Shown: one piece after another, positions 13,716-64,000 of the stretch
How the letters are laid out: every line of letters starts with the position of its first letter
How positions within the stretch are numbered: the stretch's first letter is position 1
Assembly: GCA_016700335.1 (NCBI GenBank)
Contig: CP065014.1
Span: forward strand, 2,309,479-2,373,478
Direction: 5' to 3'
DNA from: Chlorobiota bacterium
Lineage (GTDB): Bacteria > Bacteroidota > Ignavibacteria > OLB7
DNA length: 64,000 nt
Position numbers and translations under genes: made by a program
The notes under the pieces: generated by a model
Databases searched by the model: none
Seen by the model: only the letters and a program-made list of their open reading frames with translations
What the model was told of the DNA's origin: nothing

Positions 13716-13734
13716 ACAAGTTCATTAAAATATA

Positions 13735-15111: not shown

Positions 15112-15157
15112 TTTCAGTTTTAATTTGATTAATAATCTAAATGTAAATAATTGACTT

Positions 15158-16232: not shown

Positions 16233-16240
16233 TATATTTG
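16233..16240 (+). promoter_or_regulatory. TAtaTTTG motif upstream of the lipoprotein gene
   Basis: TAnnTTTG match about 45 nt upstream of the start at 16285. Confidence 0.2.
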
Positions 16241-16284
16241 AAAGAGATTTAGAACTTAATGAACAAAATTTCTCGAAGCAATAA

Positions 16285-17049: not shown

Positions 17050-17574
17050 TTAGTATTGGATTATCTTATCCCAAATTTCAGTCAAAGTTTCCCCTGTAAT
17101 ATTTGCTTTACTTTTGTAAGAATTTTTATTCAAGTAAGCAGTTTTACAACCAGCATTTTCTCCTGCTTCTATATCACTTATTGAATCACCTATCATCCAA
17201 GAATTAGATAAATCTATATCAATATCAAGACTCGCTTTTAATATCATTCCAGGCTTAGGTTTACGACAATCACAGCCAAATTCTTTTTCATGAGGGCAGT
17301 AATAAATAGCATTGAAATTAAAACCACAATTATTCATTAACTCATCTTGCATAAAGTTATGAATTTCAGATAGCTTGGATTCTGATATTATACCTCTTGA
17401 AATACATCTTTGATTAGTAATTACTATAGCTTTATAATTTAATGTTTTCACTTTTGGAAGTATTTGAAATATATCTTTATGAAATACAAAATCATCTGTT
17501 GATTTTACATAATTGTCTATATATCTCAAATTGATTACTCCATCTCTATCAAAAAATATTGCTTTGTTACTCAA
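17050..17574 (-). CDS. gmhB: HAD-IIIA phosphatase, D-glycero-D-manno-heptose-1,7-bisphosphate phosphatase-like
   Basis: FFDRDGVIN motif and a Zn-binding CxC loop (CYCPHEKEFGCDCRKPKPGM), typical of GmhB/HisB-N. Confidence 0.7.
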   Translation of the reverse strand: MSNKAIFFDRDGVINLRYIDNYVKSTDDFVFHKDIFQILPKVKTLNYKAIVITNQRCISRGIISESKLSEIHNFMQDELMNNCGFNFNAIYYCPHEKEFGCDCRKPKPGMILKASLDIDIDLSNSWMIGDSISDIEAGENAGCKTAYLNKNSYKSKANITGETLTEIWDKIIQY

Positions 17575-17616
17575 ATTGTTTTATTTGTTAATTTTTTGAA
17601 TTGAATTTAAAACACA

Positions 17617-18228
17617 TTACAAAATTATATTATTATTTAAATCAAATATTTTTATTTTATCAAATTGATTATTTAGATATTCTTCTTTAAACATGGTAAA
17701 TACTTTGTGAACAAATCTATTTCCAGCTTTATCTTTTTCAATCACTCTAAATTCATATTCATTAGTAAAACCTAGCTTTGTGGGTATTTTGATGCTATTT
17801 GTATTCAATGAATTACATCTAATTTCTAATTTTTCAATTCCAATAATATTAAAAGCAACAAACATTAATGCTTTAGTGGCTTCTGTTGCATATCCTTTGT
17901 TTGCTTCATTCACATTTATCCAATATCCAATTTCAAGAATTCCCTCTCCTTGCCTTGTATGCAATCCTGTACCGCCAAATAATTTAGAATTATTACGATT
18001 AAAAATTCCATAGATGAAATCTTTATTTTCATTAAAATTATCAATCCAATTTATAATCCTATCTTCCTTTTGAGATATAGTTTCAGGCTCAAATTTTGCC
18101 CATGGCATAAATTCTGATAAATGAATAATACTCTCATCTATAGAATCCTTTAATAACTTTGCATCATTAAAATCATAGCATCTAATACATAGGTTTTGAG
18201 TTATTATTTTATAAGCTTTGTTTTCCAT
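17617..18228 (-). CDS. GNAT family N-acetyltransferase
   Basis: Acetyl-CoA-binding motif region (GYWINVNEANKGYATEATKALMFVAF). Confidence 0.7.
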   Translation of the reverse strand: MENKAYKIITQNLCIRCYDFNDAKLLKDSIDESIIHLSEFMPWAKFEPETISQKEDRIINWIDNFNENKDFIYGIFNRNNSKLFGGTGLHTRQGEGILEIGYWINVNEANKGYATEATKALMFVAFNIIGIEKLEIRCNSLNTNSIKIPTKLGFTNEYEFRVIEKDKAGNRFVHKVFTMFKEEYLNNQFDKIKIFDLNNNIIL

Positions 18229-18450
18229 ATTTTAATACAACTCTTAAATCATTATATAGTTACAAATAATGTTAATAATTTGTTATTTAGATTTTTTAAA
18301 AAATCAAAAGTTAAAACAATTTTTAAATGAAATTAAAGAAAAATTTATTTGCTTCAAATTATTTACTAACTTGAAAATATGTCAATTTATTAATTTTTCA
18401 ATTTTTAATCATCAATTCTTTTTAAAGAAATAAATACATCAATAAATTAT

Positions 18451-19218
18451 ATGTTTATCATCATTATAATAGGATTGATTACTGGATTTTCAGCTGGAGC
18501 ATTAGGCATAGGAGGTGCAGTTCTTGGAACTCCCTTACTAAAAATTATTGCTAATTTTCCAGATTATTTAGCGCTTGCAACTCCTTTGCCAGCTGTTGTA
18601 CCTGCTGCAATATCAGGTGCAATTGCTTATTCAAAACAGAAATTACTTAGGCTTGAAGTTGCAAAACATTCCTTAATTTTTGCTATTCCTTTTAGTATTT
18701 TAGGTAGCTATATAACAAAATTTACTCCTTCTTATTTGTTAATGATTATTACTGGATTATTGTTAATTCAATCTGGTTTCTCCTTTATAAAAAAAGGTTT
18801 TTTTAGTTCAGAAATTCAAGTGTTAAATGTTAGTCCAAAAATAAATATCAATAAAAATGCTATCTTTCTTTCAGGTATTGTTGCCGGATTTTTATCAGGA
18901 TTTTTAGCAGTTGGTGGTGGAATTATATTTGTCCCATCTTTTATGAAATTTTGCAATTTATCATTGAAGGAGTCTTTAGCCACTTCTCTTTTTTGTGTAG
19001 CAGTTTTAGCTATTCCAGGAATTATTACTCATTCTTTTTTAGGGCATATTGACTGGAATGCTGCATTGATTTTAGCAGCATCTGTTATTCCTGCAAGTTA
19101 TATTGGTGCCACTTTTTCATCCAAATTAAAAAATAATACTATATCAAGATACTACGGTATTTTTATTCTACTTTTTGCTTTTATTTTCATTTATAATAGC
19201 TTAATAAATATTAAATGA
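18451..19218 (+). CDS. TauE/SafE family sulfite/anion exporter
   Basis: Two 4-TM repeats with GxxAGxLGIGGA motifs. Polytopic membrane protein. Confidence 0.8.
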   Translation: MFIIIIIGLITGFSAGALGIGGAVLGTPLLKIIANFPDYLALATPLPAVVPAAISGAIAYSKQKLLRLEVAKHSLIFAIPFSILGSYITKFTPSYLLMIITGLLLIQSGFSFIKKGFFSSEIQVLNVSPKININKNAIFLSGIVAGFLSGFLAVGGGIIFVPSFMKFCNLSLKESLATSLFCVAVLAIPGIITHSFLGHIDWNAALILAASVIPASYIGATFSSKLKNNTISRYYGIFILLFAFIFIYNSLINIK

Positions 19219-19335
19219 TTTTTAATTAATCAATAATAAATTCATTATTAATTTTTAATAAATTCAATGAAATTTATGTTTACTTTAATTCTTTTACCTT
19301 TAAAAGTAAATTAATTATTTAAATTTAATTTTGAC

Positions 19336-19860
19336 TTACTGATTCATAATTTTATCAATTCTTTCCTTTTGTAAAATATGATGGTTCCAATGCATTAAAA
19401 CAAGTTTATACCATTCATCAGCATTAAGAAAAGAAAATGCTGGGTGTGGTGTTTTGCCATTCTTATTATTTTTAAATTTCGATAATATTTTTTCCATTTC
19501 TTCTTTAACATTTTGAAACCCTGCTACAATAATTGCTTTTGATTCAGGTTGTTTAGGTGTATAAGCCTCTGAAGGAGGGACTTTAATTTTAATAGGAGGA
19601 AATTTTTTCAGAAAAATAAAGCAATAAATACCTTTAAAACTCTTCCTACCTTTTCGATTTTCTGAGCTTGAAATACAAACCCCAACTTGTTTCAAATGAA
19701 AATTTAAAGTTGAATTAATTAAATGCATGTAAAGCTGACCAATAGTCCAACTTTCTGAATCAATATTAAACTCTAATTGATTATCAGAATATTTAGCTAA
19801 TTCATCCAACCAATATGAATATACTTGTTCAAATTCTTTATAAATATTATTATTAGACAT
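19336..19860 (-). CDS. DinB/YfiT-like putative metal-dependent hydrolase
   Basis: About 170 aa with His-containing helices (QLYMHLINST, HWNHHIL) compatible with DinB_2. Weak call. Confidence 0.35.
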   Translation of the reverse strand: MSNNNIYKEFEQVYSYWLDELAKYSDNQLEFNIDSESWTIGQLYMHLINSTLNFHLKQVGVCISSSENRKGRKSFKGIYCFIFLKKFPPIKIKVPPSEAYTPKQPESKAIIVAGFQNVKEEMEKILSKFKNNKNGKTPHPAFSFLNADEWYKLVLMHWNHHILQKERIDKIMNQ

Positions 19861-19918
19861 TTCTTTATTTATTATTGAATAACAATTGTGTTAATGAAGT
19901 AACATTTAAAATTTAATT

Positions 19919-20500
19919 CTATTTATATTCAATTGTTCTAAAAGTTAAATTTATTCTTGGTTCTAAATGAAGTTTTGTTGGAGGGAGCTTATGAAGCCAA
20001 TGAAGTTGTGTTTCACCTTTCATCAATAACAAACTTCCATTTTCTAATTTCAAACTTACAACCTCTTTAGTACTCTTGCATTTAAATGAAAATTTTCTTT
20101 CAGAACCTAAGCTTAATGATGCAATAGCTCCATTTTTTTTTAGGTCTTTTTCTCCATCACTATGCCACGCCATTCCCTCATTCCCATTATGATATAAATT
20201 AAGTAAGCATGAATTGAATTTCTCATTCAACTTTTCTTCTATTACTTGTTTTATCACTTTCAATTCCTCAGTCCATGGCAAAGCTTTTTTTGTAATATTG
20301 GAATAAGTATATTCAAATTCAGAATCACCATACCATGCAACTTTTCTTTTTGTTATAATTAATCTACCAAATATAAATGCTTCATCATTTTTCCAAACAA
20401 TATTATTTAATAATGAATTATAAAAGTAACTTGTTTCTGTATCATTGAAAATTTTTCCATAATAATTTACAATACCTTTATAAGGAAGTATATTTACCAT
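19919..20500 (-). CDS. alkB: Alpha-ketoglutarate-dependent dioxygenase AlkB (DNA/RNA repair demethylase)
   Basis: 2OG-Fe(II) oxygenase motifs WHSDGE ... H ... RINLTFR. Confidence 0.8.
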   Translation of the reverse strand: MVNILPYKGIVNYYGKIFNDTETSYFYNSLLNNIVWKNDEAFIFGRLIITKRKVAWYGDSEFEYTYSNITKKALPWTEELKVIKQVIEEKLNEKFNSCLLNLYHNGNEGMAWHSDGEKDLKKNGAIASLSLGSERKFSFKCKSTKEVVSLKLENGSLLLMKGETQLHWLHKLPPTKLHLEPRINLTFRTIEYK

Positions 20501-20592
20501 TTCAGATTTTTTTTATAAATAGATTTTAAGTCAGAATACATTGTTTTCAAAATTTTAAACCAGAATTTTTGATTTTTATTTTTGAAATCAAA

Positions 20593-21423
20593 CTACAACT
20601 TTTGACCTTCAATATAAGCCATTGGTACAGTTAGAGTTAATCCTCCATTTTTGTCTGCAAAACTGTTTAAATTATTCTCTAGTGATGTAAACACCATTTC
20701 CCAATCTTTTTGTGGAATTAATTCTAACCAAGAACCTAACCAACCTAATTTAATAAAATGATGATTCAAGAATGCTGAACCATTTAAAAATTTCATTTCA
20801 ACAATATCTTCAATAATTCTAATCAACTTAAATCCATTATTAGAGTATAAGTTAGAAACACTTTTCAATGAACCTCTATGTTCTTGATGTAACCTTAACC
20901 CACTTATCAAATTAGTTTTGTTTAATTCAATTAAAGTCTCTTCAAAAACTTTGTAAAATTCTACCCAATGTCCATTAAGATTCGTAGTAATAACTAAATT
21001 GCTACCAGAATTTAAAACTCTTTTACATTCATTAAATACCTTTTGAGGATTACTAAAATTATTAATTCCTAAATTTGAAACAATTAGATCAATACTCATA
21101 TCTTCAAAAGGCAAATTCTCACCAGTTCCTTCTATAATTTCAACATTATCTAAATTATAAATTAAAATTTTCTTATTTGCTCTATCATTTGCATTTTTCC
21201 AAAGATCAATTCCAAAACATTTACAGTTTGACCCAAGCCTTTCTGCTAATTCAAACAACGGAAAGCCAGTACCCGAGCCAATGTCGAGTACTCTATTGTA
21301 TTGCTTAAGCTCAAAATGTTTAAAAAATAAAAGACCAAACATTGCACTCCACAAAGGAAGTTCATCAAAAGTATTTACTAACTCAATTGAATCACTAAAT
21401 CTATATTTCCAAAATTCATTCAT
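20593..21423 (-). CDS. Class I SAM-dependent methyltransferase
   Basis: Motif I VLDIGSGTG, post-I acidic residue, motif II and III spacing. Confidence 0.8.
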   Translation of the reverse strand: MNEFWKYRFSDSIELVNTFDELPLWSAMFGLLFFKHFELKQYNRVLDIGSGTGFPLFELAERLGSNCKCFGIDLWKNANDRANKKILIYNLDNVEIIEGTGENLPFEDMSIDLIVSNLGINNFSNPQKVFNECKRVLNSGSNLVITTNLNGHWVEFYKVFEETLIELNKTNLISGLRLHQEHRGSLKSVSNLYSNNGFKLIRIIEDIVEMKFLNGSAFLNHHFIKLGWLGSWLELIPQKDWEMVFTSLENNLNSFADKNGGLTLTVPMAYIEGQKL

Positions 21424-47832: not shown

Positions 47833-49359
47833 TTACCTAACCACACTCATTTTGTTTGTAATTTTATATCCATTTTGTTCTAAAATATACATATAATTTC
47901 CAGCTGGCAAATAAGTAGCATCAACTTCTACAGTATGTTCACCTGATTGTAATGTTTTACTCAAAATACCATAAGATTTTTTTCCATCAGGTGAAAACAA
48001 ATTAATTGCAACGTATCCATTTTGAACTAAATTAAAATTAATTTTAGTTTTATCATTAACAGGATTAGGGAAACAATTTGATAATGTCATCCCAGAAGGA
48101 ATAGTGTCATCATGAAAACTAGCTGCTTTAAATAAAGGTAATTTACTGAAGCTGCCATTTAGAAGCAACTTTTTAGAGTTTGCAGAACTTACACCCAACC
48201 AATCTTCTAAAACAGATGAGTAAATTTGTCTAAAATCAATAGTATGTTTTACGTCTCCGCGATCATCTAGGTTAGTAAGATTAGGTGCACCTCCAATTAC
48301 TTTTCCACCTAAAACATTTTTACCAATTACAAATTGAGGTGATGCTGCACCATGATCGGTACCTTGAGAACCATTTTCATTTAACCTTCTACCAAATTCA
48401 GAATATGTCATACAAACAACTCTATCAGCGTTTCCATTTGTAGATAAATCTTTCATGAAGGCATTAACAGCATTAGACAAATAAGAAAGAAGCTGTGCTT
48501 GAGCAGGTAATTGAACTGTATGAGTATCAAAACCTGAAAGTGATACAACAAATATATTAGTATTTAAACCACCATTAATTAGCCTTGCAACAACTCTTAA
48601 CTGAGAGGCTAATGAATCAGCACCATAAGTTTCTGAGTTTGTTCCAGAAAGCATAGCTTTATTAATTTCACTAGAATATTTATTAGATTGAGAAATTACA
48701 TCACGAACATAACTTAGTTCTGGTCCTGCCAAAGTTGTCGGAACAGGATCTGTACTTGCTTTCAGTCCCTTTGCAAGATTATACAACCTATCAGGATTGT
48801 CTAAAGCCATACCCATACTTCCTTTATTTGATTGAAGTAACAGAGATGTTGCAGAAGCTACTTGAATTGCATAAGGAGTATCTGGTAACACATTTGGGAA
48901 ATTGGGATATTTATTTTCTAAGTATCTACCAATCCAACCGGTAGTTTCATATTTATCTTCATCTGAAGCTGAATTAAAAATATCAGTTGATCTAAAATGA
49001 GAGCGATTATGATTTGGATAACCAACATTGCTAACAACAGCTAAATTCCCATCATTATACATTTTATAAAATGGGGATAATGAGTTGTGAAGAGCTAAAT
49101 CATTAGAGATTGGTAATACTTCACTTTTTTTCAACCCAATATTTTTTCTTGAACTAATATAAACTGGGTCATTGAAAGGTACAACTGTATTTAATCCATC
49201 GTTACCACCAAACAAATTTATTAGTACAAGAATTCGATCTGAAGCAACTGCTTTTTCTAAGCCATAATATGGAAGAGCTTTTGCAAACATCCCTGATGAT
49301 GCTATAGGTAATATGGCACCTGCTGTAACCGTATTTTGTATAAATTCTCTACGTTTCAT
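47833..49359 (-). CDS. DUF1501 domain protein with an N-terminal twin-arginine (Tat) signal and a C-terminal T9SS sorting domain
   Basis: MKRREFIQ...AKA Tat motif. DUF1501 core (LSGFDTHTVQ). C-terminal about 80 aa match Por_Secre_tail (CFPNPVNDKTKINFNL...AGNYMYILEQNGYKITNKMSVV). Confidence 0.75.
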   Translation of the reverse strand: MKRREFIQNTVTAGAILPIASSGMFAKALPYYGLEKAVASDRILVLINLFGGNDGLNTVVPFNDPVYISSRKNIGLKKSEVLPISNDLALHNSLSPFYKMYNDGNLAVVSNVGYPNHNRSHFRSTDIFNSASDEDKYETTGWIGRYLENKYPNFPNVLPDTPYAIQVASATSLLLQSNKGSMGMALDNPDRLYNLAKGLKASTDPVPTTLAGPELSYVRDVISQSNKYSSEINKAMLSGTNSETYGADSLASQLRVVARLINGGLNTNIFVVSLSGFDTHTVQLPAQAQLLSYLSNAVNAFMKDLSTNGNADRVVCMTYSEFGRRLNENGSQGTDHGAASPQFVIGKNVLGGKVIGGAPNLTNLDDRGDVKHTIDFRQIYSSVLEDWLGVSSANSKKLLLNGSFSKLPLFKAASFHDDTIPSGMTLSNCFPNPVNDKTKINFNLVQNGYVAINLFSPDGKKSYGILSKTLQSGEHTVEVDATYLPAGNYMYILEQNGYKITNKMSVVR

Positions 49360-49456
49360 TGTATGATATTGTTATTAATTATTAAGTTAAAATTGTAATT
49401 ACTTAAAAATATTTTTAGATAAATATAAGTTTATCTATTAATAAATGTACATAAGA

Positions 49457-51076
49457 TTACATTAATTGATACTCACCAAGACCCATTATTTTTGATATAC
49501 AAGATCTAATTCTTTGAGATGATTTATCAACATCCCATTCATAATCAAATCCACCAGCGAGTAACGCATCTAATAAATCAGCTTTCATATTATCAGAAAC
49601 ATCTATAGGAATAAATAGTGCTAATAAATTATCTAAAACTTTATGAACATCTTCTGAATTTGGCATTGATTTAACTAAAGCAATTGGATCAAAATTATAT
49701 GCTAAAGAACCAGTAATTGGTTCAATCCAATACTTTGTATAATTAATTCTTAAAGGCATAGTTACTCCGCTAATCCATGTTCTCCATCCTAACCAACCTT
49801 TTACATTAGGAGGATAAAACATCCATTGAGATAAGTGCATTGAAGCTGTAATAGGATCATGGGTATAAGGTACTGAAATATCTGTTTTTGTTCTATCCAT
49901 TGGTGACTTTGTATTTAATTCTTTATTAGCATCAACTACAAAATCAATTGGAGATTTAATTTTTGCCCCAATAATCTGTTCATCAAAGAAATGTTCACTT
50001 TGAAGAAGTTGTTCGAGTACCTTAGAGATATTCCAATTGTTACTAACTAAAGTTTGAGACATTCCTTTTACAATATCAGGATTTGGAACTTCATAAACAA
50101 AATACTTATAAAGTTTTTCACAAATAAATACAGCAGATCGGTTAATATTTTGGTCTTTATCAATTTGAGAGAAAATATGATCGATAACATCAAATTGAGC
50201 TTTACCTTCAATACCAAAATTTTTCTTTTCTCCAAAAATTTCTTTTTCACCGTTATCAAATCTTGCAGAATTAAAATTGCTACCGAGCCCTAAATTAGAC
50301 CACCCAGTAAACGACCTTGCAAGTGCAATAATATCTTTTTCAGAATAGTGAGGAGTTCCATCTGAATAATTCCCAATTCCAATACTAAAGAGTTCTAATA
50401 TTTCTCTTGCAAAATTCTCATTTGGGTTTCCAGCTATATTATATCTACCATCTAAATAAATTAACATGGCAGGGTCAATAGTAACTTTCTTAGTTAAACT
50501 TTTAAAATCACCGAAAGCAAATTCTCTAAATAACTGATTTTGAATAAAAATGTATTGAGCAACTTGAACCGTTGTAAAATCGCTTGTAAAATGATTGTGC
50601 CAAAACCATACCATTTTTTCTCTCAGACCCTGAGCAGGCTTCATCATCAAATCATACCACCATTCCATAGTATCTCTCAATCTTGCATAATAATATGATC
50701 TTTCAACATTATCAACATAAGCAAATGGCTGTTGGTTTGTCCAATCCTTTTTATAAGTCCCGGTTGCATTATTATCAACAGGTGGCAAAGGCAAAGGTCC
50801 TGGTGAAAGCATTTTTGAAATTAAATTTTTAGGAGATGTTTTAACAGCATCAATAATATCAATCCAATTGCAACCGAAATTGGCACGACGTAGCAAATGA
50901 GCAGCTCTCCGAGCATTCCAAGGTTTATCAGGTCTTGGTTGGTATGGGCTCAAATCTGATCCAGACCCTAATGGAACATCTGGTTGGTTTTTAAATTTGT
51001 TTGATGTAATAGTGTTACTTGAAGTTGATAAAATGTCTTGAATTAATGGCTTACTCAAGAATGATCTTCTATTCAT
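49457..51076 (-). CDS. DUF1800 family protein, the usual partner of DUF1501
   Basis: Tat-like NRRSFL at the N-terminus. Size and adjacency to DUF1501 fit the known pair. Confidence 0.65.
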   Translation of the reverse strand: MNRRSFLSKPLIQDILSTSSNTITSNKFKNQPDVPLGSGSDLSPYQPRPDKPWNARRAAHLLRRANFGCNWIDIIDAVKTSPKNLISKMLSPGPLPLPPVDNNATGTYKKDWTNQQPFAYVDNVERSYYYARLRDTMEWWYDLMMKPAQGLREKMVWFWHNHFTSDFTTVQVAQYIFIQNQLFREFAFGDFKSLTKKVTIDPAMLIYLDGRYNIAGNPNENFAREILELFSIGIGNYSDGTPHYSEKDIIALARSFTGWSNLGLGSNFNSARFDNGEKEIFGEKKNFGIEGKAQFDVIDHIFSQIDKDQNINRSAVFICEKLYKYFVYEVPNPDIVKGMSQTLVSNNWNISKVLEQLLQSEHFFDEQIIGAKIKSPIDFVVDANKELNTKSPMDRTKTDISVPYTHDPITASMHLSQWMFYPPNVKGWLGWRTWISGVTMPLRINYTKYWIEPITGSLAYNFDPIALVKSMPNSEDVHKVLDNLLALFIPIDVSDNMKADLLDALLAGGFDYEWDVDKSSQRIRSCISKIMGLGEYQLM

Positions 51077-53959: not shown

Positions 53960-54970
53960 TTGAATATGGATTCAAATTCAGAAAATAATTTTATTGACAA
54001 CTCAGAAGAAAAAAATGAGTTTTTACACAATTCTGATGAAGGATTTATTTATGCTTCCCTTGAAGCTAGGTTATCTCATATTGAAGAATTAGTAATTGAT
54101 TTACATGAATGGATTGGATCTGAACACGTATCTTCATTAGGAGGTTCTTACCGAAGGTTGTATTCACAATTAGTTGCGAATGATTTTGAACAAAGATATG
54201 CAGCACAAATTGTTAGAATGTTGTATGATAATCGTACTTCTAATGATGTAAGCGATCAAGATTTAAGGGCACTAGCAATTAATCATATTAATACTGAAGT
54301 AACTGCCAATAAAGAAACTATGGCTTACTTAAGTAAAAACAGCTCTAAGCCTTATATATTAGCTCTTGTAGGTCCTTCTGGTGCTGGCAAAACAACAATG
54401 ATGTACAAGCTTGCAGTTCGTGCTGTTTTAAATTTCGAATTGAAAGTAAAAGTAATTTCAAGTGATACATATAAAATTGGTTCTGTTGAAGGCATTCAAA
54501 CAATTGCTGATATATTGAATATTCCATTTGGTATAGCTTTTGAACCTGAAGAAATTCCTGGATTAATAAATGAATCTGAAGCAGATTTAATTTTACTTGA
54601 TACTGCAGGAAGATCGGACTCTGAAGCCCGTGAAGAATTATATGAATTTATTTCTGCTGCTAAACCTAACGAAATTCATCTAGTGCTTTCTGCCACTATG
54701 AGCCGCCGTGCAATTCAGGAAACTGCTGCTCTTTTTCTCGGTGAAAAAATTAATTGTTTGTCTTTTACTAAAATTGATGAAGCCCCATCTATTGGTGGTG
54801 TTATCTCGTCAGTTAGATGGATGGGTTTACCAATTGGCTATATTTCTAATGGTACTGCTATTCCAGATGATTTGTTACCTGCATCAGATATTTCCTTGGG
54901 TTCGTATTCTTTAGATGGAGTTCCTCCATCTATTTCACAACAAGAAGGTAAACTTGATACTCATGTTTAG
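53960..54970 (+). CDS. flhF: FlhF-like SRP-family (SIMIBI) GTPase
   Basis: G1 GPSGAGKTT, G2 DTYKIG, G3 DTAGRS, G4 TKIDEA. The G4 form resembles FlhF rather than FtsY/Ffh, which carry TKLDGxAxGG. Confidence 0.6.
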   Translation: MNMDSNSENNFIDNSEEKNEFLHNSDEGFIYASLEARLSHIEELVIDLHEWIGSEHVSSLGGSYRRLYSQLVANDFEQRYAAQIVRMLYDNRTSNDVSDQDLRALAINHINTEVTANKETMAYLSKNSSKPYILALVGPSGAGKTTMMYKLAVRAVLNFELKVKVISSDTYKIGSVEGIQTIADILNIPFGIAFEPEEIPGLINESEADLILLDTAGRSDSEAREELYEFISAAKPNEIHLVLSATMSRRAIQETAALFLGEKINCLSFTKIDEAPSIGGVISSVRWMGLPIGYISNGTAIPDDLLPASDISLGSYSLDGVPPSISQQEGKLDTHV

Positions 54971-57014
54971 ATATTTTATATATTCTTTTTTATTTCTAAT
55001 TGTTTCTTTTTCACTTTCTATTAATGTAAAAGCTAATGGAGTTTTAACAGATGCCCAATGGCGTGGAAGCAATTTAGTTTTGAGATTTTCAGATAGTATT
55101 TTGTATCAAGTTGATTTTGCAAATAGTGATTCTAAAAATGTAGCAGTTAGTTTAATTGGTGCAAATTTGAGTGCTATTTCAAATAATTTAAAAGTGGAAC
55201 CTTTCACTTTAGATGCTCCAGGCGGACTGACCCGAGCAACACTTGTTCAATTAAAACCCAATTTAGTTACTCTAAAAATCAATTTACTTCCAAATTATTC
55301 TTTCTCTGTTTTATGGAGACCTTATTCCAATCAATTTTTGGTTTATACTTATCAATGGGATAAATTATCTGTATCTGAAAAAGAGTTTCATAAAGGTTTA
55401 ATCGCTCTTGAAAACGGACTTAAAGAACAAGTCGAAAAACTTTTAGCCACGTCTGCTTCTTTAGGTAATAAAAATGCTCGTTCGGTTTTAGGGGTTTTTT
55501 ATGCCAAAGTTGGGAATGATGAATTTGCTGAGCAATATTTAACTAATCCTTCTGAACCCGATGATTATGCTGCCTTAGCAGAAGTGAAAACTAGATCTGG
55601 AGACAAAGCATTGGCTTTTAGTTATGATAATAAATTCAGGAGTTTGATGAAAGCTCAAAGAGTTACTTCAAATGATGATAGTATAACTTTAATTACCAAT
55701 TCACAAAAATTTTTAAAACAACTAGATTCAGAAAAAAAATCTAAATCCGCAGTTTTAAATTCTTTAAATGACCCAATTTTTATTACAATTATTCTAATTG
55801 TAATTTTACTATTTATATTGATAGTTTTTTTAATCACTAAAAGATCTGGTGGTAAAAATAATAGCAACTTAAATTCTAAAAGAGATTTTTTTAGATCTAA
55901 TAACTCAAGAAAGAATTACTACGATTATAGTAATGAGTATTCAAATTATTCAAACAAAAAAAGTAAATCTAAAATTACAAATGAGGATATTTTAAATACA
56001 TCTGATTTTAAATCTGTTAATAATGATTCAGATTCTTTTCCATTTGATAATGCATTTAGTAATTCTGATTTTAGAATTATTCCTAGCACTAGTTCAATTG
56101 ATATTTCTGATGGAGAACATATTGTAAATCAAGCAAAAGCATTAATCAAAAATGATGAAATCCATGATGAATCAAATGAGAAAGGTGAAATTAAATCTTC
56201 TGATAAAAATATATCTGGTGAAAATGATTCTAATATAAATTCTAAAATTATAACTTTTGAAGATAATTATCATAATGATAATTCAAATTCAGATTCATTG
56301 ATAAAAAATAACAATGATGATGATGAAGTTAATAATTTAGATTTAAAAACAGATGAGGAGAATACTTTAGATGAAAAGTTAGAAGAAGAGATAATAACAA
56401 AATATAGGCTTAACAATAAATTTGTTGATTTACAAAATAAAATACCTAATTATAGTAGTGAAATTTCAATTAATACTGATTTAAACATTCATAAAGATAA
56501 TTTAACTAATGAATTGAAATCAAAAGAAAATAAAGAAAATTTAATTACTGAATCTAGTTCAAATAATAAAGAAAATCAAAGTAAATCAACTATTAAAAAT
56601 GATGGATTTTTAGATAACCTTAATCAAGATAAAATTGAATTAAAAATACCTACAATTACTAATGAATTTTTAAAACATAACAGATTTGCAACTAATCTGA
56701 ATCAGAAGCCAAAACAATTATCTGTTCAAACTTTAGAACTAAGAAAAAAGATTGAAACAATGAATAATTTGAATGTTAATTTAACATCTAAAGATAATCC
56801 TAATATAAATAATCATAATTTTAGTTTTACAGATTCAACTTTATTAGATAAAAATTTATACTCTAATCATACATTATTAACAATTTCTAAAAGATGGTCA
56901 AAACCAACTGCAGGTTTTGATGCAATGCCTATAAAACAAGCTGCAAAAACTGAAAAAGTTTCAAGAGATTATATTATGTTAAAGGAATTAATGCAACGAA
57001 CTAAAGTAAATTAA
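54963..57014 (+). CDS. Membrane protein with a periplasmic N-domain, a TM segment and a long N/S/D/K low-complexity cytoplasmic tail; translationally coupled to flhF
   Basis: The ATG overlaps the flhF stop (ATGTTTAG). Signal/TM at the N-terminus, TM at about residue 280, then about 390 aa of low complexity. Confidence 0.45.
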   Translation: MFRYFIYSFLFLIVSFSLSINVKANGVLTDAQWRGSNLVLRFSDSILYQVDFANSDSKNVAVSLIGANLSAISNNLKVEPFTLDAPGGLTRATLVQLKPNLVTLKINLLPNYSFSVLWRPYSNQFLVYTYQWDKLSVSEKEFHKGLIALENGLKEQVEKLLATSASLGNKNARSVLGVFYAKVGNDEFAEQYLTNPSEPDDYAALAEVKTRSGDKALAFSYDNKFRSLMKAQRVTSNDDSITLITNSQKFLKQLDSEKKSKSAVLNSLNDPIFITIILIVILLFILIVFLITKRSGGKNNSNLNSKRDFFRSNNSRKNYYDYSNEYSNYSNKKSKSKITNEDILNTSDFKSVNNDSDSFPFDNAFSNSDFRIIPSTSSIDISDGEHIVNQAKALIKNDEIHDESNEKGEIKSSDKNISGENDSNINSKIITFEDNYHNDNSNSDSLIKNNNDDDEVNNLDLKTDEENTLDEKLEEEIITKYRLNNKFVDLQNKIPNYSSEISINTDLNIHKDNLTNELKSKENKENLITESSSNNKENQSKSTIKNDGFLDNLNQDKIELKIPTITNEFLKHNRFATNLNQKPKQLSVQTLELRKKIETMNNLNVNLTSKDNPNINNHNFSFTDSTLLDKNLYSNHTLLTISKRWSKPTAGFDAMPIKQAAKTEKVSRDYIMLKELMQRTKVN

Positions 57015-57067: not shown

Positions 57068-59497
57068 TTATCTAATCACTACAAAATTTGTAGAGAATTT
57101 CTCTCCATTATCATTAAATCTTAAAGTATAAATTCCAGGCTTTAATGAAGAAGTATTCAAACAAAACTCATTCGTCAAAACATTTACTTGATAATTTGTT
57201 TTATTAATTGAAGCTCCTAAACAATTACTGACGATTAATTTATCAATATTTACAACTTCTTTATTAATAAATTTTATATTCAAATAATCTTTCGCTGGAT
57301 TTGGATAAAGTATAACATTAGAATTAACAGGTTTGATTAGATTTTCATTTTTGTTTATTGAAGTTAAAAAAGCATTCCAAATTCCAAACGCAGTTGATGG
57401 TGAATTACCTACTAGAGAGAAATCGCCCCCAATATAAATATAATTATTGTCAGTAGCTAAAGTTTGAATTAATGTAGAATTACTTAAACTGGATGTTGAA
57501 CTCCCAACAACACCGCTTCCAAGTAGCTCCCATGATGTTCTGTTCCACTTTGCAATTGAATTTGCCTTTATTCCTGAGATTGAACTGAAGGATCCCGCAG
57601 CATACAAAAGTCCATTATTAGTTGAAGTTAAAGCATTTATTTTTGAATCTTTTCCAGATAATTCAGAGCTCATTTCGAACCATTCTTTTCCATCATAGCT
57701 TGCAATTCCAAAGGATGATACATTACCAGCTTTTTTAAAATCACCTCCAACAAACAGCTCGTTGTTTACACCAGAATGAATAACCCTAACCGTTGAATCA
57801 CATCCATTACCCAAAGGGACAAAAAGATTGTTTTCATATTTTGCGATATTATTTGCAATTACACCTGAGATTTCTTTAAAATTACCACCACAATACAATG
57901 TTCCAAATTTGTTTACTGTCACACAAAGAATTATACTATCACTTCCTTTTGAAAGAGGTACCCATTTTTCATTTTCAAGTGTAGCAATATTTTTATACTC
58001 TTGATTTAGAATTTTAAAATTCCCTCCAATGTATAATTTATTTTCAAATTTTGTAATTGAGTTTACAATACCAATAATATTATTTCCAATAGCTGACCAT
58101 TTTGTGCCATCCCAAACACCTACTGAGTTTATATTTTCTCCATTTATTTTTGAGAATGAACCAACAATAATTATTTTGTCAATACTTGTTGAAGTATCAA
58201 CAATCATTGAGTTAATTACTCCATTGATTGGTTCTTTAATTAGATTAGTCCATTTTTTACCATCCCAAGAAGCCAATGTTCTAACAACTTCTCCTTTATC
58301 ATCAAAGGATCCACTAACATATATATTTTTTCTTCCTATTGAAATATTTGTAATATTTTGGAAATAACCTTTTGTAAATTCATTGGATATTTGTTCCCAT
58401 TTAGAATTTTTAAACATTGCAATATGTTCTGAATACTGCTTTCCTGCTTGTGAGAAATATCCACCACAAAAAATAGAACTATCATTTGTAACAATTATTG
58501 TATTAACACCTCCACTAGTGCCATCACCTAATTTATTCCATTTCAATCCATCCCATTTTGCTATATTATTGACAGTATCATTTCCCGCAATATTAAAATG
58601 ACCCGCAATAAATATATCTTTACCAATGCTAACAATTGATGAAACAGACGAACCTTCAATTCCTCTTCCTAATGAAAACCACTTTTTTCCACTCCACCTT
58701 GCAATACCCCATGCAGGGGTGTTTGAGCTTACCGCAGCAAAACCTCCACCAACATATAAATTGCCATTTGAATAATGTAATGCTTGAACAATTCCTTGAG
58801 TTCCACCATCAAGAACCTCCCATTGATTGTTCACAAATTTTGCAACATTAAATGCCTCCTTATCTCCAGCAAATATAAAGTCACCTCCAACGAATAATGA
58901 ACCCTCACCATATGCAATTGAATAAACAGTTCCTTCAATTCCATTATCGGGAAATGTATTCCATTCTTTATTTTTTAAAGAATATGAAGCAAGGTTTTTA
59001 GATGTTAAACCATTTATTTCTGTAAAGTTTCCACCTACATAAATATTGTCATTAACAATTAACAAAGTTCTAATTGCAGAAGAATCTTTAGGAGAAATAC
59101 TATCTGATATACTCTTCCAAATTCCATTATCCCAAACTGCTAAAGAATGAATTGATTTTCCAGATATGGATTTAAAATCTCCACCTATATAAATTAGATC
59201 TTTATAAGTTGCAACAGAATAAATTGAGCCTCCATTAATTTCTCCTCCTAGAGAATACCAGGATTTGCTTTTTTTATTCCAGACAGCAATTTTATTTACA
59301 ATTATATTTCCTGAAATTGTAAAATCACCTGCAACAACAATTTCATCATTATTTCTTTCAGCAATTGAATTTACATTTCCATTTAAACCAGGTATTCCAA
59401 AATTTTTACTCCAATTGATATCATTGTTAACTTGTGAATATCCATTTAAATTATTTAACAACAAACAAAACAAAATTGAGAAAAATAATTTTAACAT
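57068..59497 (-). CDS. Secreted beta-propeller repeat protein (delta-60-like IYVGGDF repeats) with a T9SS C-terminal sorting domain
   Basis: At least 10 repeats of about 50 aa carrying a GG(D/N)F core. Signal peptide. C-terminal CTD (YPNPAKDYLNIKF...GIYTLRFNDNGEKFSTNFVV). Confidence 0.65.
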   Translation of the reverse strand: MLKLFFSILFCLLLNNLNGYSQVNNDINWSKNFGIPGLNGNVNSIAERNNDEIVVAGDFTISGNIIVNKIAVWNKKSKSWYSLGGEINGGSIYSVATYKDLIYIGGDFKSISGKSIHSLAVWDNGIWKSISDSISPKDSSAIRTLLIVNDNIYVGGNFTEINGLTSKNLASYSLKNKEWNTFPDNGIEGTVYSIAYGEGSLFVGGDFIFAGDKEAFNVAKFVNNQWEVLDGGTQGIVQALHYSNGNLYVGGGFAAVSSNTPAWGIARWSGKKWFSLGRGIEGSSVSSIVSIGKDIFIAGHFNIAGNDTVNNIAKWDGLKWNKLGDGTSGGVNTIIVTNDSSIFCGGYFSQAGKQYSEHIAMFKNSKWEQISNEFTKGYFQNITNISIGRKNIYVSGSFDDKGEVVRTLASWDGKKWTNLIKEPINGVINSMIVDTSTSIDKIIIVGSFSKINGENINSVGVWDGTKWSAIGNNIIGIVNSITKFENKLYIGGNFKILNQEYKNIATLENEKWVPLSKGSDSIILCVTVNKFGTLYCGGNFKEISGVIANNIAKYENNLFVPLGNGCDSTVRVIHSGVNNELFVGGDFKKAGNVSSFGIASYDGKEWFEMSSELSGKDSKINALTSTNNGLLYAAGSFSSISGIKANSIAKWNRTSWELLGSGVVGSSTSSLSNSTLIQTLATDNNYIYIGGDFSLVGNSPSTAFGIWNAFLTSINKNENLIKPVNSNVILYPNPAKDYLNIKFINKEVVNIDKLIVSNCLGASINKTNYQVNVLTNEFCLNTSSLKPGIYTLRFNDNGEKFSTNFVVIR

Positions 59498-59768: not shown

Positions 59769-60779
59769 ATGACATCAAATAACCGAACTAGAAGGGCTAC
59801 TATAACATCTGTGGGTCATTATGTACCCCCAGATATTTTTAACAATGATTACTTTAAAAATGAACTTGGCTTAGAAACAGATGACACATGGATAAGAGAA
59901 AGAACAGGAATTATTGAACGTCGTTATTTGGTTGAAGGTGGCACTAGCGATTTAGCAGTTCCAGCTATTAAAAAATGTTTAGAAAGAAGAGGTATCTCGG
60001 CACTTGAAATAGACTGCATAATAGTTGCAACAGTAACTCCAGATATGGCTTTCCCCTCAACTGCCTGTTTGATTCAAAATAAAATTGGAGCAAAAAACGC
60101 TTGGGGTTTTGATGTTGAAGCTGCTTGTTCTGGTTTTTTGTTCGCATTAAGAACTGGCACTAGTTTTATTGAAAGTGGTCAATGTAAAAAAGTATTAGTT
60201 GTTGGTGCTGATAAAATGAGTGCAATAATTAATTTTAAAGATAGAAATACTTGTGTTTTATTTGGAGATGGTGCTGGATGTGTTTTACTTGAAGCAACTG
60301 AGGATGAAACTATAGGCATTATTGATTTTGAATTGCATATTGATGGTAGTGGAGGAGATTTCCTTTATATGCCAGCAGGAGGAAGCCGTATGCCTCCAAG
60401 CTTAGAGACTGTGGCTAGAGAGCTTCATTATGTTGTACAAGATGGTAAAGCTGTTTTTAAAGTTGCTGTAATTGGAATGGCTGATGTTGCTGAAAGTATT
60501 ATGAAAAAAAATAACTTGACTGCACAAGACATTCGTTGGTTAGTACCACATCAAGCTAATTTGAGAATTATATCTGCTACTGCTGAAAGGATGGGTTTAT
60601 CAATGGAAAATGTGATGGTTAATATCCATAAATTTGGGAATACTACTGCTGGAACATTACCTATTTGCTTAGGTGAATGGTGGGAAAATGGGCTACTTAA
60701 AAAGGGTGATGGAATTATTTTAGCTACATTTGGTGCGGGTTATACTTGGGGTAGTGGTTATTTAAAATGGGGATATTAA
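59769..60779 (+). CDS. fabH: Beta-ketoacyl-ACP synthase III
   Basis: Catalytic Cys (AACSGF), His and Asn motifs (HQAN, GNTTAGT). Confidence 0.93.
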   Translation: MTSNNRTRRATITSVGHYVPPDIFNNDYFKNELGLETDDTWIRERTGIIERRYLVEGGTSDLAVPAIKKCLERRGISALEIDCIIVATVTPDMAFPSTACLIQNKIGAKNAWGFDVEAACSGFLFALRTGTSFIESGQCKKVLVVGADKMSAIINFKDRNTCVLFGDGAGCVLLEATEDETIGIIDFELHIDGSGGDFLYMPAGGSRMPPSLETVARELHYVVQDGKAVFKVAVIGMADVAESIMKKNNLTAQDIRWLVPHQANLRIISATAERMGLSMENVMVNIHKFGNTTAGTLPICLGEWWENGLLKKGDGIILATFGAGYTWGSGYLKWGY

Positions 60780-60904: not shown

Positions 60905-61795
60905 ATGAAATCATATATTTTTCCTGGACAAGGTTCGCAATATATTGGAATGGGGCTTGATCTGTATGAATCAAGTACAATGGTTCGTGATATAATGGAT
61001 AGAGCTAATGAAGTATTAGGTTGGCAATTAACTGGTATTATGTTCGGTGGAACTCAAGAAGAATTAACTCAAACACGAAATACTCAGCCAGCAATTTTTT
61101 TACATAGCTATGTAAGATATATGTTGTTAAACAATCCAGAACCTAATATGGTTGCAGGGCATTCTTTGGGCGAATATTCTGCATTAGCTATTGCTGGTGC
61201 AATTAATTTTGATGATGCTTTAACTTTAGTTAAAATCAGAGCTGAGTCTATGCAAATTGCTGGAGAGTCTGAACCTGGCACTATGGCTGCAATTATTGGT
61301 TTGGATGATAATTTAGTTGGTGATATATGCTGTAAAGTTTGGGAGGAAATTGGTATAGTTCAATCTGCTAACTTTAACTCTCCAGGTCAAGTTGTTATTA
61401 GCGGAAGCCCTAATGCAGTTTTAGAGGCAATGAAAAGATGTAAAGAAAATGGAGCAAGAATGGTTAAACAACTTAATGTAAGCGGAGCTTTTCATTCCCC
61501 TTTAATGGCTAGTGCACGTGAGAAGCTTACCTTAGCCCTTTCAAATGTTCATATTAATAATGCTGAAATTCCAGTTTATACAAATGTATCAGCAAAACCT
61601 ATTACAGATGCCCAAGAAATTCACGATTCATTAATACTCCAACTTACATCACCTGTTAGGTGGTCCGAAACAATTAATAATATGATTATTGATGGAGCTG
61701 ATGAATTTATTGAAGTAGGACCTGGCAATGTACTTCAAGGCTTAGTCAAAAGAATTAATAGTATTGTAACTGTTTCAGGATTTGATAAATTTTAA
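60905..61795 (+). CDS. fabD: ACP S-malonyltransferase
   Basis: FPGQGSQ and GHSLGEYSAL active-site motifs. Confidence 0.93.
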   Translation: MKSYIFPGQGSQYIGMGLDLYESSTMVRDIMDRANEVLGWQLTGIMFGGTQEELTQTRNTQPAIFLHSYVRYMLLNNPEPNMVAGHSLGEYSALAIAGAINFDDALTLVKIRAESMQIAGESEPGTMAAIIGLDDNLVGDICCKVWEEIGIVQSANFNSPGQVVISGSPNAVLEAMKRCKENGARMVKQLNVSGAFHSPLMASAREKLTLALSNVHINNAEIPVYTNVSAKPITDAQEIHDSLILQLTSPVRWSETINNMIIDGADEFIEVGPGNVLQGLVKRINSIVTVSGFDKF

Positions 61796-61992
61796 AGAAT
61801 TACTTATTGTATTTAAAATAGGTTTATATTAATTTTTCTGTTTAAAATACTTTTTTCTAAAATTAATATTAATAAATTAAGAACGTTACAAAGATTTGTA
61901 TTGTTACTTGTTTAAAGTACAACTAGCTTAAATACTTTTTGATATCTGAAACCCAAGTAAATACAACGCTTATTAACAATCAAAATTTATAA

Positions 61993-64000
61993 ATGAAGAC
62001 AGAAAGCCATTCAATAAATGATGTATTAGCTAAAAATGCAACATCATTTTTTATTCCACCATTTCAAAGAGCTTATTCTTGGGGTAGACCAGAAATTGAA
62101 AGATATTTTAGTGATATATCAAGAATTATAGAATCAGATTTAGATTTTAAACAACACGATAAATTAGAACACTTTTTCGGCACAGTTGTTATAAAAGAAG
62201 AAAAAGCAGGGTTCGCAAACAAATCAGTTGTAGTTGATGGTCAACAAAGACTTACAACCACTCTTATTTTCTTAATTGCACTTCGAGATTGTGAAACAGA
62301 TATTAAAAATCAAGAATATATTACCCAAAACTATTTAACAAACAACTCATCTTCATACCAAGACAAGATAAAACTTAAGCAAATAACAAAAGATTGGGAT
62401 TCATATAAAGCATTAGTAAACAAAACAAAACCAAAAGCAGGTGTTATAAGCAATGCTTATGAATTACTTAAAAAACTTATCAGTGAAAAGAAAAAATTAA
62501 ATCCTGAAGTTTCTTTTGAGAATTACATTATTGCTATTCAAAGAATAAATGTAGCAGTAATTTTTTTAGATGAAAGACCATTTAAAGGCGAAGACCCTCA
62601 AATAATATTTGAAACTCTAAATTCCTTGGGCAAACCATTGACACTATCTGACCTTGTAAGAAATTTTGTCTTACTTAATATGGAAAGTAATAAACAGTCA
62701 GATATTTATGAAAAAATTTGGCATCCAAATATTGAAGATATTCTTAATGAAAATTCATCCAAATTTTTTAGAGACTATTTGCAATATAAAACCAGTAGTT
62801 CTTTAAAAGTTGTTAGTGATAACAATACAAAAGAATTGTATCATCAATTTAAAGCTTTTGTTGAAGACAAATTTGAAAACCATAATGACTTCGTTATTGA
62901 TATTGTTCGCTTTGTAAAATGTTATAAATGGATTATTACCGAAATAGTTAATGAGCCCATTTCTCATAATTCAACAAAGGATAAGGAAATTAAAGAATTA
63001 CTTAGAAATATATTTCACGATATAAAGGCAGAAGCATTTAAACCACTCGTAATGGGGTTATTAGAATATCATCAATATACAGTTAACGATATTAGATTAA
63101 CTGATGAATTTTTAATTTCAACTTTAACTACAATAAGAACCTATCTTATAAGGCGAAGAATTTTAGGACTTACACAAGGAGAAAATAAAAACATTGTGAA
63201 TTTCAGCAAAAAAATTGAAGATTTGTCAAATGGAAATAATTTTATGATTGAACTTCTAACTAATCTATTTTATAGACTTAGATTACCTAATGACAATGAG
63301 ATAAAAAATTCTTTGACCTTAATGAATTTTTATGAAGGTTCAAAACAATATTCAAAATTTGTTTTAGGTAAAATAGAAGAGCATAACACAAAAGTGTCTG
63401 TTGATTTCCGTAATCCCAAAATTACTATTGAGCATATAATGCCTCAAACTTTAGAAGATAGTTGGAAAGAAGAATTAGGTAAAAATTTTAAAGAAATTTC
63501 CAAGAACTATTTACATAACATTGGCAATTTAATACTTACAGAATTTAACAGTGAAATTGGTAACAAACCATTTATTGCAAAGAAAAGAAAATTAGAGACA
63601 TCTTCTTTATATTTTAGATTGGACATTGTAAAAAGAGATATTTGGAATGAACAAAGTATTAAAGAACATCAAGCTAATATGATTACTTGGTTTCTTGAGA
63701 CATTTCCATTGCCAGAACTTTATAAAGAAAAAGAAAATTGGAACACACTATCCAATGAAAATACTCTATTTTCACCATTAGATACTGATGCAGGCGAAAT
63801 AGCAGAGGGAAATAAACCAATAGAACTTCAAATTTACAAAGAAGTAATTATTGTTAAAACTTGGCAGGATGTTTTTATTAAATTTATAAACCATTTGAAG
63901 AATAATTCCGAATTTGATTTTGATTTTATTCTAGAAAATCAAACTGAATTGTTCAGACGTGAAGATACAATAATAAAATGGAGTACCTTGAAGGAGTTAA
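61993..64000 (+). CDS. GmrSD-family (DUF262 + DUF1524) type IV restriction / anti-phage nuclease. 3' truncated at the window end; absent from the supplied ORF track.
   Basis: My own translation of the frame starting at ATG 61993 gives at least 669 codons with no stop. DUF262 hallmarks: FFIPPFQRAYSW and VVDGQQRLTT. DUF1524 His-Me-finger-like motifs: IEHIMPQT and HNIGNLILTEFNSEIGNK. Confidence 0.8.
   Translation, partial: MKTESHSINDVLAKNATSFFIPPFQRAYSWGRPEIERYFSDISRIIESDLDFKQHDKLEHFFGTVVIKEEKAGFANKSVVVDGQQRLTTTLIFLIALRDCETDIKNQEYITQNYLTNNSSSYQDKIKLKQITKDWDSYKALVNKTKPKAGVISNAYELLKKLISEKKKLNPEVSFENYIIAIQRINVAVIFLDERPFKGEDPQIIFETLNSLGKPLTLSDLVRNFVLLNMESNKQSDIYEKIWHPNIEDILNENSSKFFRDYLQYKTSSSLKVVSDNNTKELYHQFKAFVEDKFENHNDFVIDIVRFVKCYKWIITEIVNEPISHNSTKDKEIKELLRNIFHDIKAEAFKPLVMGLLEYHQYTVNDIRLTDEFLISTLTTIRTYLIRRRILGLTQGENKNIVNFSKKIEDLSNGNNFMIELLTNLFYRLRLPNDNEIKNSLTLMNFYEGSKQYSKFVLGKIEEHNTKVSVDFRNPKITIEHIMPQTLEDSWKEELGKNFKEISKNYLHNIGNLILTEFNSEIGNKPFIAKKRKLETSSLYFRLDIVKRDIWNEQSIKEHQANMITWFLETFPLPELYKEKENWNTLSNENTLFSPLDTDAGEIAEGNKPIELQIYKEVIIVKTWQDVFIKFINHLKNNSEFDFDFILENQTELFRREDTIIKWSTLKEL

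Follow-up and report, generated by a model that had tools for sequence, protein, structure and literature searches.

The subject of this study is a gene of the GmrSD family that lies downstream of fabD at the end of a 64,000-nucleotide stretch of DNA from a Chlorobiota bacterium (contig CP065014.1), hereafter called the window. The gene is intact and does not mark the start of a defence island. On balance, it is probable that it encodes a lone enzyme, a type IV-like restriction nuclease, and that it originates from an integron cassette. Judged from its sequence, it would represent a defence enzyme of a kind already known, but in a variant that is new in architecture and mobility. It belongs to a family that is already sequenced and uncharacterised, and its additional C-terminal domain is not a rare novelty. 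For the window itself, the result is largely deflationary: neither an island nor a pseudogene is present, and the one defence gene looks ordinary.

An Intact Gene Cut by the End of the Window

61993 to 64000, plus strand: first 669 of the 733 codons of the GmrSD-family gene, which runs past the window end (open frame, Pfam matches, same-species contigs)

The frame starting at the ATG at position 61993 is open for 669 codons, up to base 64000, the last base of the window, and a spacer of 197 bp separates this ATG from the fabD stop codon (61795). An earlier note on this DNA, made from the sequence alone, had given the same two figures, at least 669 codons and 197 bp past fabD, and the open frame confirms both of them. 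It had also rightly remarked that the gene is absent from the track of open reading frames (ORFs), a list that skips ORFs running off an end.

The missing part of the gene is supplied by two contigs of the same species, L084 (99.82% nucleotide identity across 10.6 kb) and L001 (98.8%). Both carry fabD, an identical 197-bp spacer, and then the gene with 64 further codons before a TAA codon, giving a protein of 733 amino acids. The C-terminal extension that had been predicted to continue past nucleotide 64000 is thus real. Extending the contig in this way for a stop codon or a frameshift just beyond the window gave a complete 733-amino-acid ORF in both L001 and L084, which rules out the pseudogene reading. 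A database protein (P0001) is also 733 residues long and is 98% identical to the window protein. Hundreds more clusters are present in the protein database and, among the at least 120 matches listed, nearly all are exactly 733 residues long. The ratio of nonsynonymous to synonymous substitution rates (dN/dS) is 0.22 between the window gene and that of the L001 strain, and 0.08-0.09 between the window gene and its relatives carried as cassettes (see below). The window gene is intact and, because dN/dS is 0.22 between the two strains, under purifying selection.

Domain Organization of the Protein

62017 to 62670, plus strand: DUF262/GmrSD_N ParB-like NTPase domain, residues 9-226 (Pfam PF03235; DGQQR at nucleotides 62236-62250)
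62671 to 63285, plus strand: all-helical linker, residues 227-431 (AlphaFold2 secondary structure; predicted local distance difference test score, pLDDT, mostly 80-95)
63286 to 63690, plus strand: DUF1524/GmrSD_C HNH (His-Me finger) nuclease domain, residues 432-566 (Pfam PF07510; EHIMPQ at nucleotides 63430-63447)
63748 to 64000, plus strand: extra C-terminal alpha/beta domain, first 84 residues of a domain spanning residues ~586-733 (domain-only AlphaFold2 model, pLDDT 92.6)

The protein had been described as a DUF262 domain with QRxYxW and DGQQR motifs joined to a DUF1524 domain with EHIMPQ and GNLILT motifs. Pfam recovers both domains and all the quoted motifs are found. GmrSD_N (PF03235) covers residues 9-226 (E-value 1.6e-32, 113.7 bits for a cutoff of 33.2) and GmrSD_C (PF07510) covers residues 432-566 (3.3e-25, 89 bits for a cutoff of 23). 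The N-terminal motifs are FQRAYSW (residues 24-30) and VDGQQR (81-86, with DGQQR at 82-86); those of the nuclease domain are EHIMPQ (480-485) and GNLILT (511-516). Among 36 diverse family members, Q25, R26 and D82-R86 are invariant in the first domain, as are E480, H481, N509, N512, N519 and N524 in the second.

The best PADLOC models are Orf5 (PDLC02693, 1e-95, residues 14-563 aligned with positions 4-534 of 543) and HEC-06 (PDLC04157, 7e-66, residues 3-565 aligned with positions 9-549 of 558). The SspE models match the N-terminal 100 residues, and both the SspE and the mREase_IV (9e-14) matches are weak; no NCBIfam model was found for the protein. The closest solved structures are those of DndI (9jfl; Foldseek E-value 6e-12, sequence profile E-value 2e-15) and SspE. 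A full-length AlphaFold2 model computed from the 36-member alignment has a mean pLDDT of 76 and displays the helical linker, the HNH region and a separate C-terminal domain, preceded by a flexible hinge at residues 584-589.

Folded alone, this C-terminal domain (residues 586-733, about 145 amino acids) reaches a pLDDT of 92.6. It has no significant match in Pfam, PADLOC, PHROGs, PDB sequences, PDB structures searched with Foldseek (best E-value 0.48) or BFVD. It is found in every member of the family, down to 52% identity, and the wider GmrSD-like proteins of 650-710 residues carry a weakly related C-terminal extension. The suggestion that the extra domain may mark a new subtype is not supported: the domain is real, but it does not mark a rare subtype, being present in every member of a large, already sequenced but uncharacterised family. 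It is a confidently folded module with no detectable relative and may hold the specificity of the enzyme.

A Family That Moves Between Phyla

Relatives were sought with an alignment as query in a scan of one genome per species, covering 185,579 species; the same scan with a single-protein query found nothing. In all, 105 relatives were recovered, all of about 733 residues and 52-86% identical to the window protein, the family as a whole being put at 57-88%. Their hosts belong to many orders of Bacteroidota, to Spirochaetota (Treponema), to Ignavibacteria and Kapaibacterium, to Kiritimatiellota and to Fibrobacteraceae. They also include Planctomycetaceae, Wolinella, Leptotrichiaceae, two bacteria of the candidate phyla radiation (CPR), WOR-3 and one cyanobacterium. 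Querying with a divergent member mostly recovered the same tight clade.

The GC content of the gene is 25-35% (47% in two loci), regardless of that of the flanks, which ranges from 28 to 59%, and no neighbouring gene family is common to more than 9 of 82 loci. Pairs of copies drawn from separate orders or phyla reach 88-94% nucleotide identity (Cytophagales and Bacteroidales, Flavobacteriales and Sphingobacteriales, a Campbellbacteria metagenome-assembled genome (MAG) and a Spirochaete). This identity is confined to the ORF region; it breaks off some 20-55 nt upstream of the ATG and 3-150 nt downstream of the stop codon. Many metagenome contigs are just 2.2-2.6 kb long and carry this gene alone. 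No relative above 60% amino acid identity was found on PLSDB plasmids or INPHARED phages. A highly conserved single-gene nuclease with hosts ranging from Bacteroidota to Spirochaetota and CPR is a good candidate for tests in a heterologous host.

Relatives Carried as Integron Cassettes

In relatives carried as cassettes, the gene is bounded upstream by a GTTRRRY-GCAACC motif, 39-76 nt before the ATG, and downstream by a GGCAGC-RYYYAAC motif, 5-22 nt after the stop codon. An imperfect hairpin of 79-134 nt begins with the downstream motif and closes with GTTRRRY, which is the R''-L''...L'-R' layout of an attC site. Such a site directly follows the gene in L002, L004-L010, L012, L017, L020, L021, L028, L089-L094 and others. 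Sites were scanned for as AAC and GTT 45-145 nt apart enclosing an inner-arm duplex of -15 kcal or better, with shuffled sequence as control; this procedure replaced an earlier scan demanding at least 6/7 R-box complementarity, which missed the gene-adjacent sites. The real loci contain 162 attC-like sites, versus 18 in shuffled sequence, and arrays surround the gene in L010 (16 sites over 13 kb), L006 (5), L028 (6) and the Spirochaetaceae loci L031 and L074.

The structure of these sites is conserved. RNAalifold applied to 24 of them yields one long-range stem. Compensatory changes are seen in 14 of its 16 pairs, some stem positions are unpaired, and AAC and CGTT are invariant at the ends. 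In consecutive sites, the closing R' is the reverse complement of the next R'' (GTTGTGG/CCACAAC, GTTATGT/ACATAAC, GTTAGGT/ACCTAAC). Likewise, across the GmrSD cassette alleles, the upstream R' and the downstream R'' are complementary at 57 of 60 variable positions (six core pairs); in a permutation test the mean was 39 and a value of 57 was reached in none of 5000 trials.

An integron integrase is encoded 930 nt upstream of the gene in L007 (TIGR02249, 470 bits for a cutoff of 265) and has the IntI-specific insertion. A small ORF resembling a cassette occupies the interval between intI and the GmrSD cassette of this locus (1270-1830), and after it comes a short hairpin with GTTAT at its end. 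Because of this ORF and hairpin, L007 looks like a complete integron, with its integrase co-oriented with the cassettes. Fragments of intI are also found in L029 and L038. L029 (Spirochaetaceae chromosome OZ245363.1, 1272-13534) carries an intI disrupted by a frameshift, about 630 nt downstream of its GmrSD gene, and three more N-terminal intI fragments (9457-9779, 6654-6944 and 1272-1481); it looks like a decaying or rearranged integron platform.

Taken together, the attC sites, the co-varying cores, the arrays and the integrase identify the gene as a canonical integron cassette, as judged by sequence; this holds for no fewer than 21 of the 81 genome loci. Chlorobi, Ignavibacteriae and Treponema are known to harbour integrons, which are known only rarely in Bacteroidetes (10.1101/2022.02.28.482270; PMC3607928), and restriction genes of types II and IV are frequent cargo of integron cassettes (10.1101/2024.07.02.601686). 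With this family, a large (2.3 kb) defence cassette is seen to circulate naturally in the integrons of phyla from which integrons have seldom been reported.

Some of these loci deserve a separate description. Integron arrays have rarely been reported in Bacteroidota. L010 comes from a Sphingobacteriia isolate (Albibacterium sp. RHL897, NZ_JBBVGT010000002.1, 7329-20625), and its at least 16 attC-like sites in 13 kb fall into two size classes of about 131 nt and about 108 nt, often in adjacent pairs; a Xer-like recombinase with a score under the IntI cutoff is encoded at 6306-7145. In L094 (7000-9600), the GmrSD cassette lies between two copies of the same attC. Loci L095-L097 encode an identical protein, and unrelated DNA starts straight after the R'' box (GGGCATAACAC followed by gaactg...). 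The comparison of L094 with L095-L097 suggests recombination or deletion at R'' and not at R'.

Origin of the Window Copy

61941 to 61960, plus strand: putative relic of the cassette 5' boundary, GATATCTGAAACCCAAGTAA (position weight matrix score 12.2 bits, 52 nt before the ATG)

Two kinds of evidence connect the window copy with these cassettes. First, the closest relatives of the window protein (86-88% amino acid identity; L002 and L089-L097) are all cassettes with both boundaries, and a neighbour-joining tree places the window/L084 sequence within the crown clade, as sister to five loci that are all cassettes. Second, when 24 cassette loci are used to derive a position weight matrix for the cassette 5' end, this matrix detects the candidate relic GATATCTGAAACCCAAGTAA upstream of the gene. 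Its empirical p-value is 1.6e-5 per position in the window, or about 1e-3 when corrected for the 56 positions tested. At the place of this relic, intact cassettes have GTTRRRY followed by GCAACCCAA; the window has a degenerate version, GATATCT followed by GAAACCCAAG, at the expected distance, and the partner R'' is gone. With moderate confidence, we infer from these sequences that the window copy, today a solitary gene of the chromosome, derives from the pool of integron cassettes. The integron integrase can insert cassettes outside att sites, as shown experimentally (10.1101/2022.09.11.507474), and by analogy such an insertion is a plausible entry route for the window copy. Cassette genes that end as solitary chromosomal genes bear on how integron cargo may seed genomes outside the integron.

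Several observations weigh against this interpretation of the gene. No AAC..GTT hairpin of -10 kcal or better was found in the window from 60 kb on, in L084 or in L001, no intI was found in the window, L084 or L001, and a downstream relic of R'' in the window is not significant. A blind nhmmer search of the window and L084 with profiles of the cassette flanks gave no matches, and local alignment of the upstream region recovered just about 17 nt before the ATG. The proposed cassette ancestry is thus drawn from the nesting in a simple neighbour-joining tree and from one 20-nt relic. Within the family, 60 of 81 genome loci have no cassette hallmarks by the criteria used; for this reason the cassette form is not universal, and transfer could also follow another route. 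In L003 and L063, which have no attC, homology to cassette copies ends at about -21/+3 of the ORF. As for the enzyme itself, its N-terminal domain is modelled with low confidence by AlphaFold2 (pLDDT below 50 at residues 1-29 and 55-84), and the closest solved structure, DndI, senses phosphorothioate (PT) rather than a base modification.

An unlikely alternative to the cassette origin is that the gene entered by a non-integron route (integrative and conjugative element, transformation or illegitimate recombination), or is native, the 5' motif being a coincidence. In addition to the majority of loci devoid of cassette hallmarks, this explanation can draw on the lack of attC in the window and L084 and on the GC content of the gene, 27%, which equals that of the host (28.6%). 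Moreover, tyrosine recombinases other than IntI adjoin the gene in 9 loci, and certain copies that lack attC share 93-94% identity with cassette copies, the breakpoints being at -21/+3. However, relatives have no such gene after fabD, the window copy nests among cassette copies, and the motif lies at the expected distance with the corrected p-value given above. Furthermore, dS between the window gene and the nearest cassettes amounts to 0.75-0.94, so that an attC not under selection is expected to have decayed. Hence, we favour derivation from the cassette pool.

The attC-less copies of L003 and L063 stand among housekeeping genes and genes without assigned function, and are 93-94% identical in nucleotide sequence to cassette copies (comparison with L007 and L006); copies of this type moved almost exactly at the ORF ends. 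In L005 (10001-12199), the gene has a GC content of 31.9% versus 58.6% for its flanks, and a gene for a 401-residue Xer-like recombinase ends 145 nt upstream.

Proposed Function and Comparison with Known Systems

All characterised DUF262-DUF1524 proteins are defence nucleases (PMC4619093, PMC8565348, 10.1101/2024.01.29.577857, PMC11662687). GmrSD and BrxU cut DNA containing modified cytosines (PMC4619093, PMC8565348), phage defence by HEC-06 requires the DGQQR and EH residues (10.1101/2024.01.29.577857), and SspE and DndI read PT (PMC11662687). By analogy with these five characterised relatives, hydrolysis of an NTP in the N-terminal domain of the window protein would gate a conformational change, after which the HNH domain would nick or cut foreign DNA. 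Discrimination between self and non-self would most likely depend on modification, in a type IV-like manner and with no partner modification system, since the gene moves and acts singly. If the protein has a module for sensing its substrate or for oligomerisation, the extra C-terminal domain would be the first candidate, which is a guess.

Among the closest known systems are HEC-06 and the PADLOC Orf5 models, the latter under a name that a literature search did not trace to any system. Both share the three-part architecture of residues 1-566, over which the hidden Markov models align end to end, and the DGQQR and EH motifs that are essential in HEC-06 are conserved in the window protein (10.1101/2024.01.29.577857). 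However, the HEC-06 and Orf5 models have 543-569 positions and stop at about residue 565, whereas the window protein adds about 165 residues corresponding to the extra domain. In addition, HEC-06 is embedded in Hma or type I restriction-modification loci, whereas the window gene is solitary, between fabD and a uvrD-like gene, and its relatives are solitary or cassettes.

GmrSD, Eco94GmrSD and BrxU are type IV enzymes cutting DNA with glucosyl-hydroxymethylcytosine, hydroxymethylcytosine or 5-methylcytosine, and frequent horizontal transfer has already been noted for the GmrSD family (PMC4619093, PMC4437046, PMC8565348). They have GmrSD_N and GmrSD_C in a single chain and the same NTPase plus HNH logic as the window protein. 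The relationship is distant, the PADLOC mREase_IV match reaching only 9e-14 and BrxU not being among the PDB matches. The C-terminal domain is none of the add-on domains described by Machnicka et al. (DUF4268, DUF4357, DNA_binding_1; PMC4619093).

DndI, of the IscS-DndBCDE-DndI system (9JFL; PMC11662687), and SspE share with the window protein a DUF262 domain with DGQQR and a large C-terminal half composed of helices and HNH. This raises the question of a PT-sensing effector of the DndI/SspE kind, whose action on self DNA would be restrained by PT modification of the host. These two proteins are indeed the best solved-structure matches, and the PADLOC SspE models match the first 100 residues. 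Nevertheless, such an effector appears improbable. DndI and SspE are encoded beside dnd or ssp modification genes, whereas no such genes occur in the 64-kb window, in the 7.6 kb downstream in L084 or among conserved neighbours, no neighbour being conserved across 82 loci. DndI alone is toxic to cells devoid of PT (PMC11662687), which is hard to square with a single-gene cassette crossing phyla. Finally, among the PADLOC models, those for SspE give a much poorer fit than Orf5 and HEC-06. DndI has 596 residues and does not have the extra C-terminal domain. A stand-alone, type IV-like mode of action is therefore preferred, because there is no partner, the gene moves alone between phyla and DndI is toxic where PT is lacking.

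It is very improbable that the protein serves a purpose other than defence, either as a selfish or addictive nuclease stabilising DNA or as a DNA-repair or processing enzyme recruited beside uvrD. Toxin systems with a stabilising role are known from integron arrays (10.1101/2024.07.02.601686), and the gene adjoins a UvrD-like helicase gene in this genome. However, no antitoxin-like partner was found in the 82 loci, the adjacency to UvrD is unique to this species, and every characterised protein of this architecture is a restriction or defence nuclease (PMC4619093, PMC8565348, 10.1101/2024.01.29.577857).

As probable defence genes found in part as cassettes, the members of the family recall the anti-phage cassettes described in integrons (10.1101/2024.07.02.601686; 10.1101/2024.07.02.601719). 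Like them, the cassette relatives consist of one promoterless ORF with an attC, are found in arrays and encode a single-gene, restriction-type defence, and that of L007 adjoins intI. In contrast, the published cassettes come from Vibrio, other Proteobacteria and mobile class 1 integrons, whereas the hosts of those reported here are CPR bacteria and members of Bacteroidota, Spirochaetota and Ignavibacteria. The GmrSD cassette, with its length of about 2.3 kb, is also unusually large, and the window copy is no longer a cassette. A bolder version of our proposal, possible but doubtful, is that these proteins form a distinct, broad-host-range, type IV-like class with a C-terminal sensor of new fold that recognises a novel DNA feature. 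Their gene would then rank with the most widely travelled of known integron cassettes, carried across at least eight phyla, CPR among them, with repeated escape from arrays into ordinary chromosomal sites, the window copy being one such escape, fixed at a broken fab operon.

Genomic Surroundings and the Broken fab Cluster

59769 to 60779, plus strand: fabH (3-oxoacyl-ACP synthase III), host gene (Pfam ACP_syn_III and ACP_syn_III_C, E-value ~1e-32)
60905 to 61795, plus strand: fabD (malonyl-CoA:ACP transacylase), host gene, last of the remaining fab cluster (Pfam Acyl_transf_1, E-value 1.2e-43)
61796 to 61940, no strand: intergenic DNA on the host side, separating fabD from the acquired unit (no likeness to the flanks of other family loci; identical in L001)

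The earlier note had proposed that a defence island begins at this gene. The flanks speak otherwise. Upstream, the window carries housekeeping genes (a beta-propeller protein of the type IX secretion system (T9SS), FtsY, UppS, glycosyltransferases, FtsW and others). Downstream, over 7.6 kb in L084, are found a convergent gene for an 834-residue UvrD/PcrA-type helicase, then DUF4126, an M20 peptidase, a PrmC-like methyltransferase and a polysaccharide deacetylase. The genes downstream in L084 rule out the defence island.

Synteny was compared using FabD homologues and their contigs, among which four relatives (63-74% FabD identity) have long contigs. Among named relatives, FabD is most similar to those of MAGs assigned to Kapabacteria, Chlorobi and Ignavibacteria (59-65% identity), which, combined with the T9SS sorting domains and a GC content of 28.6%, indicates an AT-rich representative of this group; a scan of metagenome contigs with FabD gave one weak match. 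The gene follows fabD in contigs of the same species and in none of the relatives with 63-74% FabD identity, so it is not part of the conserved core. The order fabH-fabD-fabG-acpP-fabF that had been cited as usual in most bacteria is present in L088, L098/L099 and L100, where plsX-fabH-fabD-fabG-acpP-fabF-rnc is kept, and because of this conservation the ancestral operon can be regarded as real. It had been further supposed that the gene interrupts this lipid synthesis operon, but the situation is not that of a simple interruption: in the window lineage, plsX is not upstream of fabH and fabG-acpP-fabF does not resume after the GmrSD gene. In L085, the closest different species (74% FabD identity), the order is proS-fabD-PDDEXK_3-sigma factor and the fab cluster is also fragmented. 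From these gene orders, the fab operon is fragmented in the sub-lineage of the window, and the GmrSD gene sits at a rearrangement breakpoint.

The gene would accordingly be a single acquisition at the 3' breakpoint of the broken cluster, co-oriented with fabH-fabD. From this co-orientation, it may be transcribed by read-through from fabH-fabD. A scan for sigma-70 promoters and terminators was uninformative, with fewer promoter-like sites than in shuffled sequences and no terminator.

The slot 3' of fabD is occupied by other nuclease genes in related genomes, by a Uma2-family endonuclease between fabD and fabG in L088 (10934-11506) and by a PDDEXK_3 protein in L085 (7819-8076). In this lineage, nuclease genes may land repeatedly in the DNA 3' of fabD.

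Further upstream, three features of the window can be mentioned. An ORF of 699 residues with no Pfam family (54915-57014) shares 56 nt with the end of the FtsY-like ORF before it. It adjoins a gene for an 809-residue Rax2-like beta-propeller protein with a T9SS sorting tail (57068-59497). Lastly, a DUF1800/DUF1501 gene pair is encoded on the minus strand (47833-51076), and its DUF1501 protein has a T9SS C-terminal sorting domain.

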